Part shown: positions 17,001-64,000 of the stretch, one piece after another
Position numbering within the stretch: position 1 is the stretch's first letter
How the letters are laid out: every line of letters begins with the position of its first letter
Source: Octopus vulgaris
Lineage: Eukaryota
NCBI GenBank assembly: GCA_951406725.2
Contig: OX597816.1
Location: 106,578,001-106,642,000 of the forward strand
Length of the DNA stretch: 64,000 bases
Reading direction: 5' to 3'
The notes under the pieces: generated by a model
What the model was told of the DNA's origin: nothing
What the model saw: the letters and a program-made list of their open reading frames with translations, nothing else
Database searches by the model: none
Made by a program: the position numbers and the translations under genes

Positions 17001-17143
17001 AGTGATGTCCTGATATATACATTTGTTTTATTACAATATTACTATATATATATATACACACATAAACACACACACACACACATTACTATGTATAAATGTA
17101 TATATATAACAATGCATATATATGTAAGAGTATACATACATAA

Positions 17144-17200
<57 letters not shown>

Positions 17201-17209
17201 TATATACAA

Positions 17210-17920
17210 AGAAGCCTCAGTTACAAAAAACATGAAGTCAAACCCAAACACCTTTCATTACGCAAAAGAAACAGCCTCAGTATGCTGCAAGATAGAACCC
17301 CTCTTCCAAAAGGATGGCTCCCTCACAGACAGTCCAACTAGGATCAGTGAGGTACTGAATGACCAGTTCAAAAGTGTGTTTACCACCTCATTGGAACACA
17401 GACAAGTGAACAAATCAATGGACTCCTTTGCTGCCTCACCTATAACCAGCAAGGCAGTTACAATGGAATACATCGATATTAGTGAAGAAGATATACAACT
17501 AGCCATAGATGAGGTGGACACAAACTCAACTGCTGGTCCTGATGGCTTCCCAGCAATCCTCCTCAAATTGTGTAAGCATGCCCTGGCAAAGCCCCTCCAG
17601 ATTCTCTTCCAGAGCTTTCTTGCAAGTGGCAGACTGCCAAGCAAGCTGAAGGAGGGAATAATATGCCCAATCCATAAAGGGGGAAGCAGAGTAGATGCCA
17701 AAAACTATTGGCCTATCTCTCTGACTTCACACATCAGCAAAGTCATGGAACGGATAGTCAGAGGGAAACTAATCACATTCCTTGAAGAAAATAACTTGCT
17801 GAGTGATACCCAACATGGCTCCGACCAGGTAGCAGCTGCCTGACCCAGGTCTTACATTATGACTGGGTGTTGAGGCAGTTACTTAACAACTCAAATATGG
17901 ACGTAATATAACTTGATTTT
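17210..17920 (+). pseudogene. CR1/Jockey-group LINE reverse transcriptase fragment
   Basis: [48 protein letters not shown] then frameshifted SCLTQ; both ends lie in (TA)n. Confidence 0.92.
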
Positions 17921-18924: not shown

Positions 18925-19525
18925 AGCGCAGTAGTGGTGAGATGTGACAGCAAAGAAAAGCATACATTCACTCTCTGCATGCAATTAGACTCGGAAAGTT
19001 CGTGAGGAACCCATTGACCCAATTTGCTGACTTTTCCAATAGCACACAGGTCTCAATGAATGGTTGAATGACCAAATCCAAGCTTCTCTGCTAGTTCCTC
19101 AACAGTTACGATGAGATTTTGTTCCACCAGGGTTTTCAGGATGTCCTTGTCGAGTTCTACAGATCTTTCAGGATGAGGCTCATCTTCTAGGCTGTAGTTT
19201 ATGGCTCGGAATTTCTGGAACCACCATTGACACTGCCTTACGCTTATTGTCCAATCCCCATATACTGCATTAATATTTCTTGTACTTTCCGTTGCGTTGT
19301 TGTCTTTATTGAACTCATAAAGTAAAATATGCCAAATATGCTCCTTTGTTACTTCCAATATAGCTTTGAAAAAATAGCTGTTAAAATCGAAATGCACTCT
19401 TCAAAACTTGCACTATGAATAAGGACAAGATAAAATTACTACCTGCTTTTATAGCAAGTTAATATAAGTAGTTTATCCCATTCCCCTCTGACATTTAGTT
19501 CAAGCTGTTGAAAAAACCGCATTAT
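18925..19525 (-). mobile_element. Mariner transposon 5' part (HTH to WVPHEL), decayed
   Basis: HIWHILLYEF...INAVYGD..ISVRQCQWWFQKFR...EELAEKLG, followed by GQWVPHELSE near 19000. Confidence 0.92.
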
Positions 19526-24313: not shown

Positions 24314-25169
24314 TACACGAGATCTGATCAATAAAAATCTGGACTGTTGCCATAGTAATGGAGCTAAAACATGCTCAGTGAAGCTGCTTGGCATGCGCTC
24401 TAAGTTTCAATGTTCTTGCTCACGTCAGCTGTTTACAGTAGTACTTGGAAGGAAGGTGTGTAACGTGTGATTGTCGCATTGACCATGATAAAGTTGTCAT
24501 AGCAATACCTCCTCAGAGGCCTGCACCAGGCTTCAGAAAGTGTATGGAGAGGAGTGTATGAGCTACACACAAGTGTACAAGTTGTTCAGATGCTTCCAAG
24601 ATGGCCAAAAAAATTTCAATATTGCCGAACATTCTGGGAGACCAGCAACCAGCAGAACTGAGAAAAACATCACAGATGTGCATGCAGCTGTGAGGGAAAA
24701 ATCATTGAATCACCATCCGTGAGTTATCAGGGAATGTGCAGATTAGCTACAGTTCAGTCCATCATTACTGAAGATTAGGGTATAAGATGCATGTCTGCCA
24801 AATTTGAGCCAAAACTGCTTTCAGCTGACCAAAAAGACACTTGGGTTTCAGTTGCACAAGATCTCCTTAATTGTGTCGAGAATGATGAAAACTTTTTGAA
24901 AACTTTGTGTAGGCTTCTGAACAGGTATCGCCAAGCCTTTGGCAAAATTTGATGCAGATTCTCTGCTCACCTGTCTCTGTTATGGTCAATGCAACGATCA
25001 CATGCTACACACATTCCTTGCAAGCATTGCTGTAAACAGCAGATGTAAGCTAGAACGTTAACACTTAGTGTGCATGCACAGCATAGTTAAAGGTCAATCA
25101 GTGCCATGCGGCTTCACTCTCCATGCTCTAGCTTTGTTACTATAGCAACAGTCCAGATGCTTATTGATT
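24314..25169 (+). mobile_element. Internally deleted mariner transposon with TIRs
   Basis: TIR atcaataaaaatctggactgttgccatagtaa pairs with ttactatagcaacagtccagatgcttattgat; decayed transposase VYGEECMSYTQVYKLFRCFQDG..HSGRP and SAKFEPKLLS. Confidence 0.9.
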
Positions 25170-25883: not shown

Positions 25884-26083
25884 TTAAGACATTTGCATGT
25901 GATATTTCTGGCATTGGTTATTCCAATTTGGTTGATGTCCATTGCTTGGATGGTGACGGCATTCTCCATTATTCACAGTTTGCGGATTCACAGGTGACAA
26001 TGAAATTTCTGACAGCAAGCCAGGTATTAAAGACTCCTTATTGTTCTGGACTTTTAAAGGTGCCATCTGCTTCTGGTTGTAGC
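25884..26083 (-). CDS. Putative terminal coding exon of the p75NTR/NGFR-like gene
   Basis: Strong acceptor tttttcttattttttctttattacag|GC; phase 1 matches the upstream exon (T|GC = Cys); open for 65 codons (YNQKQMAPLKV...YHMQMS) to TAA; unique complex sequence among repeats. Confidence 0.7.
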
Positions 26084-26139
26084 CTGTAATAAAGAAAAAA
26101 TAAGAAAAATAATTAAAATATATGCATATATATACACAG

Positions 26140-27501
26140 GTGGATATGTGGTTGTATAGGTTTAAAAATTTCCTTCTTGACCACATGGTTTCAGGTTCAG
26201 CCCCAGTGTGGTACCTTGGGCATTTGTCTTCTACTGTAGCCCTAGACTGACAACAGCCATGATAATCATTTTGAATAAATGGAAACAAAAAGAAGCCCTG
26301 TGTATGTGTGTGTGTGTTTTCTGTCTTCTGTCTTATAATTGTAAATGAGTTAGGCAGGCCAGTTTATGGGGTTATAAACCAGCCTACCCCACTATAATAT
26401 CAACTGCTCTACATCTTTGAGTGTGCTTCTCCTCCAGATTTATGTATTTCTATAACCAATATATATTTATCTTTTATTTTTTGGGTGTTTCAGTCATTTA
26501 ACTGCAGCTATGGTGGGGGACTGCCTTAAAGAACTTTTAGTTGAATGAATCAACCCCAGTACTTATTTTTGTTAAGTATGAAATTCTATCAGTCTCTTTT
26601 GCCAAACCACTAAGTTACTGGAACATAAACCAACACCAATTGTCAAGTAGTAGTGAAGGACAGACACAAAGACACAGACACACGCATACATGACAGCTTC
26701 TTTCAGTTTCTGTCTACCAAATTAATTCACAAGGTTTTGGTCAGCCTGAGGCTATAGTAGAAGACACTTGACCAAGGTACCATGCAGTGGGACTGAACCC
26801 AGAACCATGTGGTTTGAAAACAAGCTTCTTACCACACAGCCACACCTGTGCCCATGACAGGCTTTTTTCAGTTTCCTTCTACCAAAACCACTCACAAGGT
26901 TTTGGTTGGCTCACATCTATACAGCAGAAGACGCTTATCTAAGGTGCCACAAACAGGTATTGAATCTGAAATCTTGCAGCTGGGAAGCAAACTTCTTACC
27001 ACACAGGATTTTGCAGGGTATGAATGGAAAACCCAAGAACGACTCTAGGCGGAACAAATTCCAGCTATGTCACTCCTGGTGAACCACTAAAGGACCATCA
27101 TTATAGCTCCATTCACATCTAATATGTTTTACAGGGGAATAGATATGCTCCAGTGCTGATGCTTTATTTTATCAATCCAGGTAGGGAGAAAGGCTAAGTT
27201 AAACTTACTGGACTTTGAATTCTGGCCCTTTTGGAAATAGCAGTAAACCCTGCCCTCTTGAAAAGGGAGGGCACCATTAAATAATGTAGCTTTTTTCTTT
27301 TACTTTTATTTGTTTCAGTCATTTGACTGCAGCCATGCTAGAGCACCGCTTTTAGTCAGGCAAATCGACCCCAGGACTTATTCTTTGTAAGCCTAGTACT
27401 TATTCTATCGGTCTCTCTTGCTGAACCGCTAAGTGATGGGAACGTAAACACACCAGCATCGGTTGTCAAGCGATGTTGGAGGGACAAACACAGACACACA
27501 A

Positions 27502-27538
<37 letters not shown>

Positions 27539-28225
27539 ACAGCCTTCTTTCAGTTTCCATCTACCAAATCCACTCACAAGGCTTTGGTCAGCCCGAGGCT
27601 ATAGTAGAAGACACTTGCCCAAGGTGCCATGCAGTGGGACTGAACCCAGAACCATGTGGTTGGTAAGCAAGCTACTTATCACACATACAACTAGCTGTAA
27701 ATATTCATTTCTGAAGAGGATAGGCTGGTTACGGATGGAATATAGCTCAACATAGCTTTGCTTAGTCAAGGATGACCAAGGGTTAAACAACAGCAACAGA
27801 GATTACCTGAAGATTGTGGTTGTGATTATTGTTACTGTTTAGCTCCAAATCAACCTTCATTGAACAGACCTAGAATCAAAGATATACACTCAGCTCCTGA
27901 TTATCCCATCTTCTTAATTCAGATCTTGTAGTTTGAGTCAAATGACTGAGTTATAGGACAATAATGACAGCACTGCTTCCAAAGCAGAGTAAACACAAAT
28001 GAAAACACAGGACAACTCACATACATACACACACACACGTCTGCGTGTGTGTGTGTGTGTGTGTGTGACAGGCTTCTACACAGTTTCTGTCTACCAAATT
28101 TTACTGATAAGGCATTAGTCAATCTTAGGGTATAAATAAAAGACTCTCACACCCAAGGTGTCACACAGCAGGACTGATACAAAACTACTCAGTTTCAAAG
28201 TGAACTCATTAACCACACAGCCATG
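26140..28225. mobile_element. Intronic cluster of family A SINEs (26140-26300 +; 26485-26850, 26855-27005, 27295-27685, 28065-28225 -)
   Basis: Repeated matches to the 5710-6100 element (cagtttc..tctaccaaat..actcacaagg, gggactgaacccagaaccatgtgg). Confidence 0.88.
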
Positions 28226-29248
28226 CATCATGCATGCATCCCCCCCACACACACACACACAGATATATTAACATTTTTGGTACCTGTTCTATATATCTAA
28301 ATCTATCTACCTACTTATCTATCTATCTATCCACCTATAAACTATAATATACAATTTATTTCTTCTTGAAAAAAATAATTCTTAACTTATTGTATATAAT
28401 TCTCAGGTGCACTTACAATACATTAAAAGTTACTATCTTTTATCAAAATATTTCTGCACGATTCTAATTACACATATTTAAAGTATTCTTCTGTCTTGAA
28501 CTATAAAGAAAAAAATTTAAAAAACATGGAGCTTCAACACTGACCTGCTACAAACAGTAACCAAACTTCCCTCAAATCCAACTTTATTATGTTAAAAAAT
28601 ATATTGGGTAAAATAGACCTGAATATACACTGTCTGCAAAAAGATGGGGCAGTAACAACTTGATTGCTTTCAATCATATAGGTCTGCTCAAATCAGGGCT
28701 GGCCTAAGACCAAACCACACCAACGACAGAAACAACATGGAGTTTAACTAAATATTTTAACATACCTTCTATTTTTGGATAATTAAAAAAATATTTAAGT
28801 AAGACTTAAAATGTGAATTAAAGATGAAGGAAACTCTTCAAAAGTCATTCAAAGAATGACTATATAAGAAATAAGCTATAGGGAATGGAATGATAATACG
28901 TAAATCAAAATAAACAGTATATAATAAGCTGTTGAAAGTCAAACAGAAATCCTAATATAATTTCCAAGCCAGAAGACAAATGTCTATTGATTGTGTTTGA
29001 TATTTTAACCTTTTAAACAGACTTCATCTCGTTACTTTAGCAACTTCAGATCTTTACATAGTTTTAATGTTACTTCACACATCAACATATAGAAACTAAT
29101 AAATGCAAAATGATCAGTCACGAGGGAGGGCAGAATTAAATGATTCATTGCTGCTCAAACATAATGCAGCACATGTTAAAAATGTACGCAATGCTAGACT
29201 TCAAAAAATATAAAAATGATCAAGTAAAATGTTGTTTGATCTACTCAC

Positions 29249-29488
29249 ATGTTTTAATGCCTGAGTCATCATAGACAATACCACTATCTCTTCCAGAAGC
29301 TTTAGAATATTCCACATCTTCATGCATAGCATTGTCTCTAGCACCAAGCCTTTTGTTACGCTGACGTTGGCAGTGTTTATAAATTGCAAAGCCACACAGG
29401 CCACATACAACTGCGCCAAGCAGGGCACAATAAATTGGAATTACATCAATGCGCGTTTCTTCATAACGGCTTGCATAACCTTTGCCAG
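29249..29488 (-). CDS. Internal exon of a p75NTR/NGFR (TNFRSF16)-like receptor: stalk end, transmembrane helix, juxtamembrane region
   Basis: Acceptor cttattttgcag|CT, donor ACAT|gtgagt, 240 nt, phase 1-1; IDVIPIYCALLGAVVCGLCGFAIYK...RDSGI resembles vertebrate p75 NLIPVYCSILAAVVVGLVAYIAFK...SDSGI. Confidence 0.9.
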
Positions 29489-30000
29489 CTGCAAAATAAG
29501 AAACCATATTTGAAAAATATTTTTCAAACAACCATTATATATATACCTCTGGATTCAGTCAATAAAAAAATCAAAGAAAGAAAGAAAGCAGGTTTATATA
29601 CAAGAAATTATAGGGTATGCAATAGATAATAAATAGAAGAGCTACATAGTGATAGAAATTAGCCCTTTATGCATGGTCACAGTTCAGATAGATCATTAGA
29701 GTGCAGACCTACAGGCAGAAGTGGAAGGTTACTACCAACACAGTGCTGCATCTCTAGTAAAGCCATGAGACTGCCATTGACTAAGCTTATTTTGATGTGA
29801 AGCTGCTGTTCCCTTTGAATGAGTTACAGTAGTATTTCTGAAACAGTTACCAAAAAAAAAAAAAAAATTATATATCTCTCTTAATATGAAAAAATGCTTA
29901 TGGACATGTTATAAAATAATCCATAAGGGCTAAAACACAACATTTACTGCAAACAAAACTGTGGAATGAAAAGTATCAAATGGATAAGCTTTTGATTTAA

Positions 30001-33654: not shown

Positions 33655-33756
33655 CACATGAGTATAGATAGGTATATGTAAGTTTATATATTACAGATAC
33701 ACAGATGGATAGATATTTACACATAGAAATATATCTATCTTTATATATATATACTG

Positions 33757-33884
33757 TTGTGTCTGGGGAGAATCATTTTCTTTTTGTGCCTTATAATCTA
33801 ACACACACACCGGTAAAATTTCCGCTTATTTCTTATTTTTATTTTCCTAAAATTTTCATTGTGTCTTGCAACCTTTTCAATAGT
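33757..33884 (+). mobile_element. Half copy of the palindromic MITE at 22788-23055
   Basis: gtgtctggggagaatcattttctttttgtgccttat ... gtcttgcaaccttttcaatagt, ending at the palindrome axis. Confidence 0.85.
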
Positions 33885-33889
33885 TTTGA

Positions 33890-35715
33890 CTACCTAGCCA
33901 ACGATAAACCTCAATGCTTGGCTTTTGTGGATTTGGAGAAAGCCTTTGACAGGGTCCCCCGATCCCTTATCTGGTGGGCGATGCAGAAACTAGGGATTGA
34001 AAAATGGTTAATAAGGGCTGTACAGGCTCTATACAGAGATGCCATTAGTAAGGTTAGGGTTAGCAATGAGTATAGTGAAGAATTCCAGGTAGAGTTAGGG
34101 GTCCACCAAGGATAAGCCCTCAGTCCCCTCTCATTCATCATAGTCCTCCAGGCAATAACAGAAGAATTCAAGACAGGTTGCCCCTGGGAGCTCCTCTATG
34201 TTGATGACCTGGCCCTCATAGCAGAATCACTACCAGAGCTAGAAAAGAAATTTCAGGTGTGGAAGCAAGGTTTAGAATCGAAGGGCCTTAGAGTCAATGT
34301 TGCAAAAACTAAAGTCTTAGTAAGTAGGAAGGTGAACACATCACACCCCTCTGCAGGTAGATGACTCTGCTCGATCTGTAGAAAAGATGTAGGTAGAAAC
34401 TCCATAAGTGTACCCAGTGTAAGCTATGGATACATAAGAGGTGCAGCAACATCAAAGGAAGATCAACCAGGAAGATAGCTTTCATGTGCTGCAGATGCAC
34501 AGGGGCAATAAACACCACAGATGCTCAAAAAACAGATTCCATTACATGCCAGGGGGAGAAACTAGAAGTAGTTGATACCTTCCGCTACCTAGGCAACCAA
34601 GTCTGTAGTGGGGGTAGTTTCTCAGAGAGTGTTACCACTAGAACGGGCAAGGTTCAGAAAGCTTCTACCCCTACTGGTGACAAAGGGCCTCTCACTCAGA
34701 GTGAAAAGTAGATTGTACAATGCATGTGTGTGAACTGACATGCTTCACAGCAGTGAAACATGGGCCGTGACTGCTGACGGCATATGTAGGCTCAAAAGAA
34801 ATGAAACTAGCATGATCCACTGCATGTGTAATGTCAGTGTGCACACACAACAGAGTGTAAGCACCTTGAGAGAAATGTTGGACATAAGCATGAGATGTAG
34901 TGTACAAGAGAGATGTCTGTACTGGTATGGTCATGTACTACAGATGGATGAGGAGAGTTGTGTGAAGAAGTGCCACTCCAAAACAGTGGAAGGAACCCTT
35001 GGTAGGGGAGACCCAGGAAGACATGGGATGAGGTGGTGAAGCATGACCTTCAAACGTTGGGCCTTACAGAGGCAATGATGAAAGACCAAGACCTCTGGAG
35101 ATTTGCTGTGATTGAGAAGACCTGGCAAATAAAGTTAGATCACAGTTGTAGCTTACACCAGTGTTGCATAACCAGCCCACTCAAAAAGTACCTTGGATTG
35201 TAGGGCGACATGCCATGTTTGAGGAGACCCATTGATCAAGTACATCAACATCAAAATCGAATCAAGCCACAATCAAATGGAAAATGTAGTTGTGACTGAT
35301 GCCAGCATCACCTGTCTGGGTCCCCAACCAGTGACACATAAAAAGCACCATCCTAACGTGGGCAATGCCAGCCTCCTTGCCCTGACTGGCTCTTGTGCCA
35401 ATGGCACGTAAAAAAGCACCATCCAAACATGGCTGATGCCAGTGCTGCCTTGACTGGCTCCCATGCTGGTGGAACATAAAAGCACCATCTAAACATGGTC
35501 GATGCCAGCCCCCTGTGACTCCCGTACCAGTGGAACATATAAAGCACCATCCAAATGTGGTCAATGCTAGCCCCCTCTGGCCCCTATGCAGGTGGCACAT
35601 AAAAAGCATTCACTACACTCTCAGAGTGGTTGGTATTAGGAAGGGCATCCAGCTGTAGAAACACTGCCAGATGAGATTGGAACCTGGTGCAGCCTCCTGG
35701 CTTCCCAGACACCCA
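33890..35715 (+). mobile_element. 5'-truncated RTE LINE: RT with PHD insertion, C-terminus and 3' UTR with ~65-bp tandem repeats
   Basis: AFVDLEKAFDRVPR, GVHQG, ELLYVDDL, GLRVNVAKTK, FRYLG, SETWAVT, LYWYGHVL; stops and frameshifts; aaaagcaccatc units at 35340-35610. Confidence 0.95.
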
Positions 35716-46824: not shown

Positions 46825-47037
46825 AAGGTGGTGGGCTGGCAGAATCTTTATCATACCTGACAAAATGCTTAGTAGCATTTTGTGTGTCTTTATGTTCTGA
46901 GTTCAAATTCTGCTGAGGTTAACTTTCATCTTTTGGGGGCTGATGAAATAAGTACCAGTTGAGCACTATGGTCGATGTAATTGATTTCCCCACGCACCAA
47001 AATTGCTGGCCTCGTGCCAAAATAAGAAAGGATTATT
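46825..47037 (+). mobile_element. Family B SINE
   Basis: aaggtggtgggctggcagaatc...ttctgagttcaaattc...aaataagtaccagttgag. Confidence 0.85.
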
Positions 47038-48813
47038 GTACAGTCCTTTAAGAGACTTTCTGTACATTGGCTCAGTCAATCTAACTGCAAAACAGTAATA
47101 CAGTTGAGCACATATCATAATCGCCAGTAAATTGCACTTACATGTGCCACGATGAACGTAGCATTACATATCAAGTTCCACAATCAGATGAGATACGGAG
47201 AGTTAATATGAGAAGTGCAGGTTGAGTGCATATACTAGGCTTGGCGTCCGGCAACGAGTAAAGGAACACTGCACACATACAGTGAGAGAAGATGATGGAG
47301 ACAGAGAAGGAGGAGAGGGGGAAATGGGAGAAGTCATACAAAGGGGACAGTTGATTTTATTTTAAATATTTTTTCTTGATCATTTTGTAAAAAGCACCAA
47401 AAACTTTGACCAAAGTTAGACGATAATTATTGTATGTATGCCATCATTTTGGATATTACTTATTGTGGCAAGTGTACTTTCAAAGTTACGCCCGCGCGCA
47501 CGCACACACATTTAATGTACACAGTATAAAGATAAGAGCTAATAGTTTCTTGCTGTGAAGACACGTGTCTAGGCAAATTTTTATAATGTGCCTTGTATCT
47601 CCAAGCAATCTTCAGACTACCTAAACACGTGGCTTCATAACAGGAAATTATTAGTAGCTCGTATCTTTTAAACTGTGTACATTAAACGATATTTACCTCT
47701 CACTGGATAGAATACTTTATCTTTCACTAGATAGTTGAGTAAGTCTCATAAACAAAAGGAGCACACGGTATTTAATATCTATATAATTGTAATATGGACA
47801 TTTTACTTCGCGCTTTCAATAAACTCCAACGAAAGTTTGCATAGGATTAGGTTCATAAAACCGTCAGATATAACATGACTATAGCTTGCAGTTGCCTAGG
47901 GCGTGATGACATATGTTATGTTCCATCGTCAGTGATCAACGGCTGTTGTGACATCACAATGCACGAAGGACATGTAATGGGCGTCGCTTATGATTAGTGA
48001 AAGATGGAATCTTTTAGCTAATAATAAGCAGTTGATAACATCTGTGATTATAATAAGCAGCTTCAACTGTATATAAGCAGACAAGTGTTCGTTACTTCTG
48101 CATATCGTAAAAGATCTTATTCGCATCGTTCAGTCTCAGCAATCATTAGTTGTTTTTGAACCATCACAGCAATGTTGCAGAAATATTGTTACTATAACCC
48201 CAAATCCTAACCCTAGCTATGCATTTTTGGTTTTATTTTCTTCATTTCCCCAATGGTGCACAAAAACTGTTTACAAGGCGCCGTTGTTATAAAAGGAAAA
48301 AACACCAACAGAAAACCGAGTTTTGTGGAGTTGCATAATGAAAGTTAAGCCAAGTCAAATTTGTAACTAAAATCTATAGTTCTATTTGGTGATGGCTACG
48401 AGAGAGGGAGGGAGAGAGAGAGAGAGCTAGGGGGAAGCAATTATTGCTTGATCGTTTATATTTCTATGTAATACCATATGATCAATGTATTGATGATGTT
48501 CATTATTTGAGTTATGTAATAGGTACAATAAAGGTTAACTCTAAGCTTTCATCAGACGGAAGTTATCTAGATAAGAGAGAGGTATGTATGTTTTTGTTTT
48601 GATTTTATTCTTTTTTTTTAATGAAATGGTTCTTCCCACTGATTTTTCATCAAATGATACGAAAACTTTCCAGAACATTACGTGATTATGAAGCCAACAA
48701 CAGAATAGTTAGTATTAATGGCTGTTCAACACAGCTAAATGTTGTTGTCTGAGTGTATATTCTAAGAGAATCGATCTAATGAAGGAAATAATGAAATAAA
48801 ACAATTTTTAATA

Positions 48814-48846
<33 letters not shown>

Positions 48847-50379
48847 TTATAACAACTTTCATTCAGAAAAGAGAGATTTTCTTTCAAGTTTTGTGTGAAT
48901 AGCAAGTTGACACGTCAAAGCTATAGTGTGACTGCCATAACAGCTACCACCAGCGCCGACTGGCGGTTTTTGATAGAGGCTCCCTGGTAGCCGCCATAAA
49001 TCGGTCCCTTTTATCTTTGTTTGATGTCGGTTGAAAGGATAGGGCCAACGTCGATTAAAACAAACAAGATAATCTTCAGTACAAGCAGACCTATTCATAA
49101 TGTATTCCACAGAAGTTGATCAAAAGAACAGCTTCACATATCGGAATTAATTCGCTCTATTATTTTGGTGCTATCTTTGAATTTTCGGTTGGGTTAGGGA
49201 GAAAATATTTTCACTAAACAACACTTTGATTATAAAATGTATGCAGTTGTTTTTCTTCTATTTTTATTTTCCATTTTCTGTTTAATTCTATGTTTCTCAT
49301 ACAATTTCTCTATGTGTGATCGCATATGAATCAAAAAAGCCAATATGTACGTTTTTGCCATACGAACTACTCACAAGCGCATCTATTACCTTTCATATGC
49401 ATACAAATTTACAAGTATGCCTATATTCTGCTGTCAGATAAAATATCCGTCGATAAAAATAAAATATAAAAATTGATTAATAACTATAACAAAGTAAAAC
49501 AAGCAAAAAATAGAAGGGAAAACGACCACCACTGATTTAATTCCAACTTTTAATCTGCAGATCAGAAGATAGATTAAAACTAGTAGGGGTGCATGATTAA
49601 AGCTAAGCGTATCTGGATGGTTCAAAGTAACTGTTAGAAATTCCGAAATAAAAATAAAAAGTCGATTGCGTATAAAAGAAACGAGCTGCTAGTTATAACC
49701 TCTTGTTAGTTTATAATATAATCAGTCTTGCATTATTATTTGGACGGCTGGAGTAACGAGCGCTTTGGAACAGACGTAAGTTTTGAGAGAGCCGAACCTG
49801 CAAATATAGTTTCGATTTTCACTCAGAACCATTTCACAAGACTCATGACCATAATACTCTTCTACTCATATCCTACACAAATGTTTTTTTGACTGAGCTA
49901 GAAATGCCAGCAAAAATCTCTCACATATCAGCCTCTATTCTCTTAAAATGCAAAGCACATACTAGTAAAGTCCCATATACCATATGTCAGAAACAAAAGG
50001 CGGAATGGTCATGATTGGAATGCCTTCAACCAAAATTCTGCTTGATCTTCTCTGGGGTTAAAAATAACAATAGCAATACACTTTGACGTTTTATAACTTT
50101 CAGGTAAAGTACAGTTAAAGTAAGTTCTGCGAAAAGTGACTATACTATCTGGTTTCGATTCTTGTTTGAAATAATTTCATTTCAATCATTCTGACAGACA
50201 TATGTAAATGGTGCAAAACATCACAACTATGTTCATCCAGCTCAAGCACATTCCAGTTTCAATTTACAATAAGTTATGTTTGGTTGGTATTCATTTATTT
50301 ATATTCTGCCAAATCTTCTAAACAATAGCGTATTTACTCTTACTACGTTGTAATCATAACAATACAGTTACACTCATCT

Positions 50380-52835: not shown

Positions 52836-55504
52836 TCATTTCCAATTAAGGTTTGTGATCTGTAATCTTTTGGATCTTTTACTGCAAACACTATTCACCA
52901 TGCAGGGATAATTTAAATTATCTTTTCTGCAGGGTCTATGTATCATTTGTTTCTTCACCAAGGAATAAAGATGTGATATTAATGGGTTTTTGGGATTAGG
53001 AAGTTCAGCTGTAACAATTTTATCAATTCCTTGCCATGTGTTGTGATGATTTTGTATTATGAATAAGAAATTGCAATGAGGTAATCCTCTTTTTTGAAAT
53101 TTCACTGTGCTCACAAGAGCAATAAGTTTCTCAAGGAAATAGTTACTAATGCTTTAATTTAAATACACTTGCAGTGATATCTGGTTGGTCATCCACCGTC
53201 TGGCCCATAAAAAAGCTCGTTAACTATTTCATGTCATTTTGGGTTGCATATAAAAGTCAAAAATAAAGTACGTTTGCCAAGTTTTCTAACTATAGTCATT
53301 GCATCCTGGTAGTGTTTTGCCATATATCGCGGACGTCCTGTAAATGAACTTGGCAATATATATATCTACAACCTGTATGATCAATATCACCTGCAAGTAT
53401 AGCATCTTGTAAGCCATTATATAAATCAGCTCTTAAGGTTGCTTGATTGTTACAAACATATTGTAGATAGGTAGATTGTACTTTGGCAAATTGATCTACA
53501 CAGTATTACTGAAACAAACGCTGACCTAATTGCAATATATATTTATAAATCCTGTCCTTTTCCTGATGTGATAACAATAAAATTGAACTATTGAAATTTG
53601 ACAGTTGCCATTTCCATTCTTTAATCCAAGGTGCCACCCATCTAGGCCAGAAGGAAAAAAACATGGGTACATCACTGGGTCATATGATCAATGCGAGTCA
53701 CTTAATATTTGTAAAGATTTTTGGTTTTTCTCTGCTCTGAATTTTGTTACGACCATTCGTTCTGAACAATTTGTTTCCTCATCAAGATTATTTGGTATAA
53801 GAATAGCAAGCTCATTAGAACTTGGTGGATTATATCTCCTTCAGTGTTCCCCATAAGGTTTGCTCCTGCATCAATTTGCTCCTGCATGAATAGAAAAGAT
53901 TGTAAGTATTTCCAGCAGCTATCATAGCAGAATGAATTTTTCGAAATATGTTTACATTGAAGGCTTGGTTTGCATTGTTAAGAGGCATTTTTTCCATTCA
54001 TTTTCTTATTTGTTCTTCATGATCATAGAAATATGTTTGTAAGCTAGACAGGACTGTTCTTATTTGGTTTCTAAGAGCTCCAATAAATCTATAAAGAATT
54101 CCAGGTATTCTGTAAATTGTAATTCTTCTCAGAATTGAAGTGTCATCTACTTTCATAGAACACATTGCCATTGCACTGTTGAACCTTCGAATATTACATT
54201 TGAAATATTTTGCTTCAGGAGTATTAGAAAGAAAGAAATCAGCCAGTTCGTTTGGTAACTCGGTGATATTTTCAATTTTTATTATTCCTGATTTACAGCA
54301 TATACCAAAACTGGGATTGTTCATTGTTCCTCTTGTACACTTTCCAATAAACATCAAAGCATTGCAGTGGCGGCAATGCACTTCCACGAGGCTGCAACGC
54401 CAGTGGGATCCTGTAGAAGTCCATCTATATCATATTGTTGAGCTTTATTAAGAGTCAGCCTATTATTGATTTGCTGATGTCATCTGTGTTGTGCTGCATT
54501 TGTTCGAAAATCTGCTTACGTTGTTCTTGTGGCAGCTGTTGCCTTGCATTTCAATGCTGAACAGCATTTTGTTCTAAGATCTGTTCATGTTGTTCTTGTG
54601 ACAGATGTTGCTTTGCATTTTGATGTTGAACAGCATTTTGTTCTAAAATCTGCCCATGTTGTTCTTGTGACAGTTGTCGTCTTGCACTTTTGTGCTGAGC
54701 AGCATCTTGTTCTAAAATTTGCTTTCTTCGCTCCTATGATTGCGCTAAACGGAGCTGACGCTGTCTTCCCATGCTCCTTTTACATTGCTCTTCCTTCTGT
54801 TCTTGAGTTTGCCTCAATCTTCCTAATTGCTGACTTAAACATTTTGTAGTTCTTCTATAATTGGACCATTCCTCTTCCACGGACAAATCTTAATTAAATA
54901 TTTATTAATTAAATAGAATAGTATGAAAATTAAAAAAAAACATAATAGTGAGACAGGCTATTGTATTATGACAATATTGGCATCTTATTTACACAGCGTG
55001 AGGTTCAAAACAGTGAAAGAAGAAGGAAAAAAAATTCAGTTTCATTTTGACGACAAACGCTATTTCATACATGCAAACATTCATATATTTCCCTTTTACA
55101 CGCACACACACACACATCAACGTTCAGTATTCTATTACACTTCCATAGTACACATGCACACACAAACAATCACATACATTCCTTTTACATACGCATATGT
55201 TCTCTCCCCCTCTCTCTCTCTCTCTTTGTGTCTTTCTGTCTCTCTTTTTCCCCCTCCCCTTCTCAACTCTACTCCTCTACTTCCTTCTCTATCTCTAACT
55301 CTACTATTGTTTTTTTCTCTCTTTATCACCCCTTCCTTCATTATTGATATGTTGTGACAGACTGATACTCTTCCTCAGTATCTCTTTCTTTCTTTAATTC
55401 TTTCTTTCTTTCACTCTCTCTCTATTTCATTCACCTCTTTTCCTCTATCTAATTACTGATGGCTTCGGACAGATGGACAGATGCAGCTCTTGTTATAGTA
55501 TAGA
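52836..55504 (-). mobile_element. Decayed autonomous Helitron, 5' half (23-aa repeats, Zn finger, HUH Rep); helicase missing
   Basis: 5' end TCTATACTATAACAAGAG at 55504; CRHCNALMF...CCKSG; LPSSFTGRPRYMAKHYQDAMTIVRKLGK; LFLTFICNPK; KFQKRGLPHCNFL; MIHRPC; many stops and frameshifts. Confidence 0.93.
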
Positions 55505-62474: not shown

Positions 62475-64000
62475 AAGTCTAAGAAATTTCACTTAATGAT
62501 CTCTTGATTACCAAGAAATTTGATGAGAGGGAAGAGGAACTACAGTCCTCGGACATAGAAGGTAGCTGGAAATTCTTACGGGACAGTTTACTGAGTGCCA
62601 CTGACCAAGCTTATGGATGGTGCAAAGTCCCTTCCAGACCTAGAGTAACATGGTGGTGGAATGATACGGTAGACAATGCCATCAGAGCAAAGAAACAGGT
62701 CTGGAAAGCCTGGAAGGGTGGGGGCAGCAGGGAACAATACCAAATAGCCAAAAAGGAGGCTGGGTGACAGATATACGTAGCCAAGGGTGAAGCAGAAAAG
62801 AAGAAGTTTGCCTATGTCCAGCAACACGAGGACCAAAGAACTGAAGTATTCCAGATTGCAAGACAGTGAGCGAGAGAAAATTGTGATGTCACAGGAGAGA
62901 AATGTGTCCACATGGATGATGGTGCCCTTGCTTTTAATGATTTGCAAAAGATGAGGCTTGGAGAAGCCATTATGAAAGACTATTGAACGTGGAGAATGAG
63001 TGGGAGGAGGAGAGCCTGCCAAATGTTGATCCAGTAGAGGGACTGGCTATCGAAATAGACAGCATCCTGGTAGATAAAGCAATTAAGGATGTGAAGCCAA
63101 GAAAAGCCACCGTCCCATCAGGAATCTCTGCTGAGATACTTAAAACATCCGGTGGTGTGGACTTTGGCCTAGTCACCTGTATTGTAAACCAGGTAGTTCA
63201 TAATGGAGTCATACCCAATGACTGGCATAGCAGCACCATAGCCAACTGCTACAAAGGTAAAGGTAATGCTTTAGATAGAAATATTTACAGAGGCATCAAA
63301 TTGCAGGATCAGGTGATGAAGGTCACGGAGAGGGTCATAACCCAACTAATTAGGGAGAAAGTCTGCTTAGATGAGATGCAGTTCGGTTTTGTGCCAGGTA
63401 GAAGCAAGACTGATGTTATATTTCTGGTACGGCAACTGCAGGAGAAATACCTAGCCAAAGATAAACCCCTATATTTGGATTTTGTGGACTTGGAGAAAGC
63501 CTTTAACAATTCCCCTGTTCCCTTATCTGGTGGGCGATGCAAAAACTGGGGATTGACGAATTGTTAATAAGGGCTGTACATGCCCTATACAGTAATGCTA
63601 TCAAGAGGATTAGGATTGGAAATGAGTATAGTGAAGAATTCTGGGTAGAAGTAGGGGGTCCACCAAAGATCAGGCCTCCATTATTGCCTGGAGGACTATT
63701 CATCATAGTCCTCCAGGCAATAACAGAGGACTTTAAGACACATTGCCCCTTGGAACTGTAGTTGTCGCTGATGCCAGTGCCACCTGACTGGCTCTCCGTG
63801 CCAGTGACATGTAAAAAGCTCCAGCTGAACATGGTCGATGCTAGCCCCCTCGCCCCGACCAGCTCCTTTGCCGGTGCCACGTAAAAAGCACCATCTGAAC
63901 GTGGCCGATGCCAGCCCCCTCTGGCCCCTGTGCTGGTGGCACATAAAAAAAACTGACTACATTCTCGGAGTGGTTGGCGTTAAGAAGGGCATCCAGCTGT
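62475..64000 (+). mobile_element. RTE LINE with internal deletion; runs off the window
   Basis: TWWWND, CYKGKGNALDRNIYRGIKL, QFGFVPGRS, FVDLEKAF; jumps at ~63755 to the 3' UTR repeats. Confidence 0.95.

Follow-up and report, generated by a model that had tools for sequence, protein, structure and literature searches.

The p75-like gene and its transcripts

The window analyzed here is a stretch of 64,000 nucleotides from the Octopus vulgaris genome (G000), positions 106578001 to 106642000 of contig OX597816.1, hereafter C3; it consists of AT-rich animal DNA with many microsatellites. Within it lie the last two exons of a gene for a receptor related to the "p75 neurotrophin receptor" (p75NTR, also NGFR or TNFRSF16). 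The gene lies on the minus strand, where its four coding exons are spread over about 146 kb, with introns of up to 49 and 93 kb (positions preceded by C3 are those of the contig, all others those of the window). Exon 1 (C3:106749842-106749810) is a hydrophobic stretch of 11 codons with a GTAAGT donor, a possible signal peptide region; because the reversed control pattern used in the search for this exon also gave one match, its assignment is based on position, strand, and donor. Exon 2 (C3:106657060-106656562, 499 nucleotides) encodes all four cysteine-rich domains (CRDs). Exon 3 (29249..29488, minus strand, 240 nucleotides, phase 1-1, acceptor ttttgcag and donor GTGAGT) provides a very short stalk, the transmembrane helix, and the juxtamembrane region (residues 178-258). 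The last intron (26084..29248, 3,165 nucleotides) is the expected site of the molluscan exon for death-domain helices 1 and 2, and is followed by a terminal exon of 66 codons, exon 4 (25884..26083, minus strand), that begins at 26083 after ttattacag and closes with a TAA stop ending at 25884.

The product is a TNFRSF16-like protein of 323 residues with four CRDs, a p75-type helix, and a tail of 109 residues, counted from the lysine after the helix, that lacks a death domain. An initial annotation, made from the sequence alone, had proposed just such a death-domain-less receptor of p75NTR type, in which the phase-1 transmembrane exon joins the exon at 26083-25884 in frame to give a tail of about 110 residues rich in asparagine, glutamine, proline, and serine. 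The splice of exon 3 to exon 4 does unite T with GC in a cysteine codon, and these four residue types (N10, Q8, P6, S6) make up 30 of the 66 residues of exon 4.

Conserved features of the family are kept in the membrane-proximal part of the protein. The helix V193-Y214 (29379..29444, minus strand) matches the Pfam family TNFR_16_TM (PF18422) with 30 bits against a cut-off of 25.6, and alignment places the conserved cysteine of its PIYC motif, C198, at 29429-29427. Across 23 aligned sequences I194, P195, Y197, and C198 are invariant, as are D245, S246, and G247 in the juxtamembrane motif H233-G247 (HEDVEYSKASG.DSG; 29280..29324, minus strand), in which H233, V236, E237, Y238, S239, A241, and S242 are each found in at least 90% of sequences. 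This motif is common to other molluscan p75-like receptors, and the earlier suggestion that the juxtamembrane region is retained thus stands. Between Octopus and Argonauta, identity amounts to 140 of 164 positions in the CRD exon, 69 of 80 in the membrane exon, and 46 of 60 in the tail; since the tail is also identical at all 66 positions among three Octopus species, it is not junk. Three further cysteines, C206, C209, and C217, lie in or just after the helix (29373-29405, minus strand); C206 and C217 occur in Argonauta as well, and all three are absent from the bivalve and gastropod rows. They are possible sites of palmitoylation or of extra disulfides.

Transcript contigs were available from four runs (X1, X5, X10, and X18) of four studies, among 20 runs listed. 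As none of the listed runs is recorded as RNA, the case for expression rests on exon-exon joins: GT-AG joins across introns of 3 and 49 kb at one genomic locus indicate that the contigs are spliced transcripts. The transmembrane exon (29488-29249) is joined directly to the exon at 26083 in contigs of all four runs, which provides the transcript check of the 29249 to 26083 junction that had been proposed with the initial annotation. In each run the contigs span exactly 29248-29490, and depth is zero at the flanking intron positions. Past the junction, the first 30 letters of the loose end correspond to window positions 26053-26082. The contigs extend 225-271 letters beyond it, a length that fits the 199 coding bases still to come and a stretch of 3′ untranslated sequence. 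Upstream, the join to the cysteine-rich exon is present in three of the four runs. The same join and the same end are found in gene models of Octopus bimaculoides (XP_052822182), Octopus sinensis (XP_029634100), and Argonauta hians (GAB1600657). Exon 3 is also identical to the corresponding part of P0001, an Octopus vulgaris protein named TNFRSF16-like by NCBI, which is not counted as independent support because it may derive from the same assembly. Two other models add nothing to this picture: P0007 (476 residues), considered as a distinct form, turned out to be an N-terminally extended model, and P0010 is an unrelated member of the cluster.

Several comparisons bear out the absence of the death domain. 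Pfam finds four TNFR_c6 domains and TNFR_16_TM but no Death domain in P0001, P0002, and P0007, and it does find Death in P0003 (E 6e-18) and P0004 (E 1e-15). A death-domain profile built from 13 molluscan and annelid p75 relatives was run over all six frames of 264 kb (the window plus 100 kb on each side, with stops read through, in 1,764 chunks). Its best match anywhere had an E value of 0.81, and 40-residue pieces of a held-out death domain, used as a sensitivity control, scored E values of about 1e-9. The earlier statement that no death-domain exon lies in the last intron or farther downstream therefore extends to the neighboring DNA on both sides. In the last intron itself there is no trace of a helix 1-2 exon; assessed by sequence alone, it holds two weak open phase-1 cassette candidates, neither of them death-domain-like. 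A weak profile match on the other strand (L004:7461), some 22 kb upstream of the CRD exon, which was also the second-best decoy in the exon comparisons described below, has no sensible frame and was set aside as chance. There is no N in the window or in the 20 flanking stretches. In an AlphaFold2 model based on the 23-row alignment, in which 21 rows carry a death domain, residues 232-323 have a predicted local distance difference test score (pLDDT) below 50, and the death domain of a limpet control folds at about 90; the folded six-helix domain of death receptors is thus missing here. For residues 190-323, the best score in the ESM Atlas was 0.78, below the chance bar, and the structure rows had template modeling scores below 0.45. 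The octopod form of p75 accordingly lacks the death domain, and this is an expressed, lineage-fixed loss.

Descent of the receptor and spread of the loss

Published accounts have the p75 death domain retained all the way from cnidarians to humans (10.1101/2021.12.26.474206, PMC2772990, PMC4812194) and under strong constraint in chordates, with an omega of 0.063 (PMC13663574). Comparison with the TNFRSF16-like proteins of other molluscs, another step suggested at the outset, places the octopods apart. Among 31 protein matches, 14 non-octopod relatives span both ectodomain and helix (the remainder being two octopod rows, the six fragments P0024-P0029, and nine other TNFRs). The Death family PF00531 is present in 12 of these 14; the other two, from Dreissena and Mya, are labeled partial, and another Mya model (P0043) carries the domain. 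Its loss is common to the three Octopus species and Argonauta.

A tree was built from 26 rows trimmed ahead of the death domain. In it, Octopus and Argonauta group together with full support (100/100) within a p75-like clade of 20 rows (91/88) that also holds gastropod, bivalve, tubeworm, and coelacanth sequences, the outgroups being CD40- and OPG/DcR3-like rows only. Because the octopods lie among gastropod, bivalve, and annelid rows that bear the domain, the loss is derived; as it is shared by Octopus and Argonauta, it occurred before these two diverged and after their lineage separated from other molluscs. When the whole genome was searched with P0001 and with P0003, which has a death domain, this locus was the only p75-type locus found, together with one unrelated TNFR exon on contig C7 and two chance-level matches. 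The gene is therefore most likely orthologous to the p75NTR-like receptors of other molluscs, and likely present as a single copy in the genome. The "paralog or isoform" of the initial annotation is supported neither by this result nor by the short form seen in all four runs and in models of three Octopus species and Argonauta. Lacking a death domain, the protein is classed as an orthologue by descent; it qualifies neither as a canonical p75NTR nor as a death receptor.

Several points count against this placement or blur it. The genome searches are insensitive to short exons, which weakens the claim of a single copy; the search with PF18422 missed the gene's own membrane exon, and that with the limpet protein P0074 missed its juxtamembrane motif. 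The tree leaves open the position of the octopod branch within the 20-row clade, and no named squid, cuttlefish, or Nautilus protein was recovered in searches that are known to lose relatives.

Some candidates from these searches were rejected. The PF18422 search of the genome gave no match even though the exon passes the cut-off, and is uninformative; P0074 retrieved only a protein with COR and death domains on contig C12, which is not a p75. A second TNFR match on contig C7 (L023:2136-3518, equal to G000:C7:2365635-2367017, plus strand) was considered as a p75 paralogue, but it belongs to another gene of the TNFR family, with a short cysteine-rich part and, as far as traced, a very long, unrelated stalk-like exon. 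The genome-wide search for Death domains gave at least 44 matches (E up to 1, 52 candidates scored), none of them on contig C3. Separately, near-identical Death-domain exons form clusters on contig C29 at 27.9-29.4 Mb (about nine matches), C31 at 2.1-10.1 Mb (about five), and C14 at 75.5-75.6 Mb (about three), representing local expansion of some death-domain gene family.

Origin of the last exon

How a domain so widely retained could be removed without disrupting the reading frame is suggested by the organization of the gene in other molluscs. The Lottia model P0044 passes from the membrane exon directly to GFSTKK, without some 42 residues that are present in Patella P0049, and the Batillaria model P0028 diverges after LAREL. 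These breaks suggest that the molluscan death domain is split between a phase 1-1 exon A, for helices 1 and 2, and a terminal exon B, for helices 3 to 6, which would begin inside the glycine codon of LG[YF]. In the limpet AlphaFold2 model the predicted intron falls between a helix at residues 77-84 and another at 89-102. Exon 4 of the octopus opens with GC TAC AAC, the rest of a glycine codon followed by tyrosine and asparagine.

Anchored to exon B over their first 40 residues, the tails of Octopus and Argonauta reach 20.5 and 20.2, respectively, with 11 of the 22 exon-B templates, against 2.3 ± 1.9 and 3.2 ± 2.3 for shuffled controls, none of which reaches the true score in 150 trials each; with the initial YN held fixed, one shuffle in 150 does so in each case. 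The true exon also ranks first, with 11.0, among 5,767 AG-followed open decoy frames from the 264 kb compared with 20 templates, and none of 1,200 decoys equals it in a smaller test with seven templates. With 18 templates, the exon-B reading has z scores of 5.3 (Octopus) and 5.1 (Argonauta), compared with 1.2 and 1.6 for a reading as the whole domain. Under the exon-B alignment, isoleucine would have taken the place of the helix 4 tryptophan, and beyond about 37 residues the similarity is lost gradually. The last exon thus quite probably descends from exon B, as the remnant of a decayed second death-domain exon running from helix 3 into the start of helix 4.

This descent has evidence to its disadvantage as well. 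The best decoy scores 9.6, compared with 11.0 for the true exon. Comparison of the tails with exons A and B by hhalign is not significant, with a probability of 1.4%; local scores of the tail against exon B have z values of only 1.2-1.4, the profile score is near 0 bits, and the best local match begins at exon B in seven (Octopus) or eight (Argonauta) of 18 templates. Intron positions in the relatives were taken from breaks in gene models and not from their DNA. Moreover, exon A of mussel and pearl oyster also starts with YNQ and wins in three of 18 templates.

The last of these points bears on a different route to the same end state, in which the last exon derives from the former exon A, or from one fused exon for the whole domain, by decay in place and truncation. 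Besides the shared YNQ opening, MAFFT sets GLLSEI on helix 2 and the NQWQK of Argonauta on the helix 4 tryptophan, and the three templates following the exon-A diagonal do so for Argonauta. Anchoring to exon A, however, gives a score equaled by 90 of 1,500 decoys, the whole-domain version reaches z scores of only 0.5-1.6, and exon A would require an extra codon at the acceptor where exon B fits unchanged, so that this route appears unlikely.

In the exon-B account, exon A would have been lost with the reading frame intact, since its symmetric phase (1-1) preserves the frame when it is dropped. The half domain left behind would have been unable to fold, and exon B, freed to drift and shorten, would have become the tail that is now predicted to be disordered. 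The Lottia gigantea model named above (LOTGIDRAFT_239725) skips the first death-domain exon; if it represents a real splice form, it would show the very exon skip that has apparently become fixed in octopods.

Likely function of a p75 without a death domain

The overall reading, of moderate confidence, is that the octopod p75 orthologue lost exon A, that its exon B decayed, and that the protein is likely a ligand-binding co-receptor signaling through its membrane cysteine and juxtamembrane motif. It would bind ligand and form dimers by way of C198, with the juxtamembrane motif and the tail as its effector parts. The death domain of mouse p75 is responsible for recruiting RIP2 and part of RhoGDI, which is also bound by the juxtamembrane residue K303, and mutants without the death domain or the membrane cysteine are signaling-deficient and slow to internalize (10.64898/2026.02.10.705215). 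By analogy with the vertebrate receptor, then, RIP2/NF-kB signaling, part of RhoGDI binding, and the JNK and caspase outputs would be gone, residence at the surface would be longer, and functions of the dimer and the juxtamembrane region would remain. Neurotrophin, Trk, and p75 co-occur in Lottia and in annelids (PMC2772990, PMC4812194). Less favorable to the proposed role is that an insensitive genome search gave no match to neurotrophin (PF00243) over the cut-off. A true absence of neurotrophin from the genome would alter the reading of the octopus receptor.

A decoy or scavenger, whose ectodomain binds a neurotrophin or TNF-family ligand while the tail has no signaling role, would be compatible with the four intact CRDs, with the predicted disorder of the tail, and with the six TNF-family ligands reported for Octopus vulgaris (10.1101/2024.07.27.603686). 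It is nonetheless doubtful, as the membrane cysteine and the juxtamembrane motif conserved across molluscs are kept in octopus, the tail is 77% identical to that of Argonauta, and no full-length p75 was found for a decoy to antagonize, which makes "decoy" a weaker description than "co-receptor." A death-domain isoform or paralogue that was missed (as a rare splice form lost from contigs of which only the first 30 letters past the junction are visible, as an exon more than 100 kb away in a gene with such long introns, or as an unassembled locus overlooked by insensitive searches) is very improbable given the agreement of four runs, three Octopus models, and the Argonauta model, the lack of Death matches on C3 and in the 264 kb, and the stop codon that exon 4 itself contains.

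Comparison with known systems places the co-receptor reading in context. The molluscan and annelid p75NTR-like proteins (descendants of "PITA"; for example, Mytilus VDI48839, Patella XP_050418854, Haliotis XP_071103435, and Lamellibrachia KAI0227706) have four CRDs and a PIYC-type helix, are 32-39% identical to the octopus protein overall, and, except for the tubeworm, share the HEDVEYSKAS..DSG motif; the octopus differs in lacking the death domain, in having the shortest stalk in the alignment, and in its extra cysteines C206, C209, and C217. Among solved structures the best matches are p75 ectodomains (E 6e-21), the top three in the PDB all being TNFRSF16, and the membrane cysteine family PF18422 is likewise shared with vertebrate p75NTR, which, unlike the octopus receptor, has a death domain that binds RIP2 and RhoGDI (10.64898/2026.02.10.705215). 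The CRDs occupy one exon in octopus and two in chicken, mouse, and human (PMC2772990). Drosophila Wengen, a protostome TNFR proposed to descend from p75/PITA, also lacks a death domain (PMC2772990, PMC4812194, 10.1101/2021.12.26.474206); going by its description, it differs from the octopus receptor, which keeps four CRDs and a recognizable p75 helix and represents an independent loss in another phylum. The engineered mouse delta-DD knock-in similarly retains ectodomain, helix, and juxtamembrane region, but it is a signaling-deficient laboratory allele (10.64898/2026.02.10.705215), whereas in octopods the form without the domain is fixed across four species and has a conserved replacement tail of 66 residues.

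Among truncated p75 relatives, NRADD/NRH2 and s-p75NTR have lost ectodomain and kept the death domain. The main octopus form, with four CRDs in three of four runs and no death domain, is the mirror image both of NRADD/NRH2 and of s-p75NTR, which lacks the CRDs of exon 3 (PMC2772990).

A second octopus form would, like those proteins, be without CRDs. In one of the four runs (X18), exon 3 is joined instead to an upstream exon within the 49-kb intron (47697..47875, minus strand, with a GTAAAT donor at 47696 and the outer end estimated from 152 loose letters), bypassing the ligand-binding exon. The stretch is single copy in the genome. The 30 letters of X18 differ from the window at two positions, or agree exactly if a 24-nucleotide near-duplication in the window is skipped, as judged by eye. 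Near this exon the observed/expected CpG ratio is 0.81-0.92 against a median of 0.26, with positions 47001-50000 CpG-rich, and an internal promoter is possible. The form carries stops in frame and offers no ATG from which the frame runs on into the helix; its first productive ATG, at M232, would give 92 residues and is preceded by many short upstream frames. Possible readings of the exon are an alternative first exon, a poison exon inside the gene, and noise.

The window also contains remnants of mobile elements. Decayed reverse-transcriptase fragments resembling long interspersed nuclear elements lie at 33672-34112 and 62941-63564 (plus strand; Pfam RVT_1, E about 3e-5, under the cut-off), and a similar-looking frame at 17100-17840 has no Pfam match. 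Helix-turn-helix fragments of a Mariner/Mos1 transposase (PF17906) are found at 19056-19400 (minus strand, E 4e-20) and 24492-24719 (plus strand, E 8e-7), and a weak Helitron-like fragment (PF14214, E 0.0097, under the cut-off) lies inside the 49-kb intron at 52839-53153 (minus strand).

The finding concerns a known family and the loss of a single domain; there is a precedent in the fly, and the architecture is already visible in database models. No published report of death-domain loss in octopod p75 was found in a search that left most subscription papers outside; octopus and cephalopods go unmentioned in the main text of 10.1101/2021.12.26.474206, and its supplementary tables S5-S7, of lophotrochozoan matches, may list octopus sequences. 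New here is the best match of the octopus last exon, which is to the beginning of exon B in other molluscs; this suggests loss of the helix 1-2 exon and would provide a traceable example of domain loss via a symmetric exon. In the octopod receptor, nature has in effect produced the counterpart of the mouse delta-DD allele, isolating the function of p75 without its death domain in a lineage of interest for its big brains and nerve regeneration. A tentative and rather improbable extension is that the only p75 of octopods is a death-proof receptor, made by frame-preserving exon loss, in which the half domain left over found new use as a disordered but conserved signaling tail and an internal CpG-rich promoter drives another form, independent of ligand and lacking the ectodomain, that would amount to no more than a membrane stub or a free intracellular fragment of 92 residues from M232. 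If that were true, the largest nervous systems among invertebrates would conduct neurotrophin-type signaling with no cell death driven by p75.

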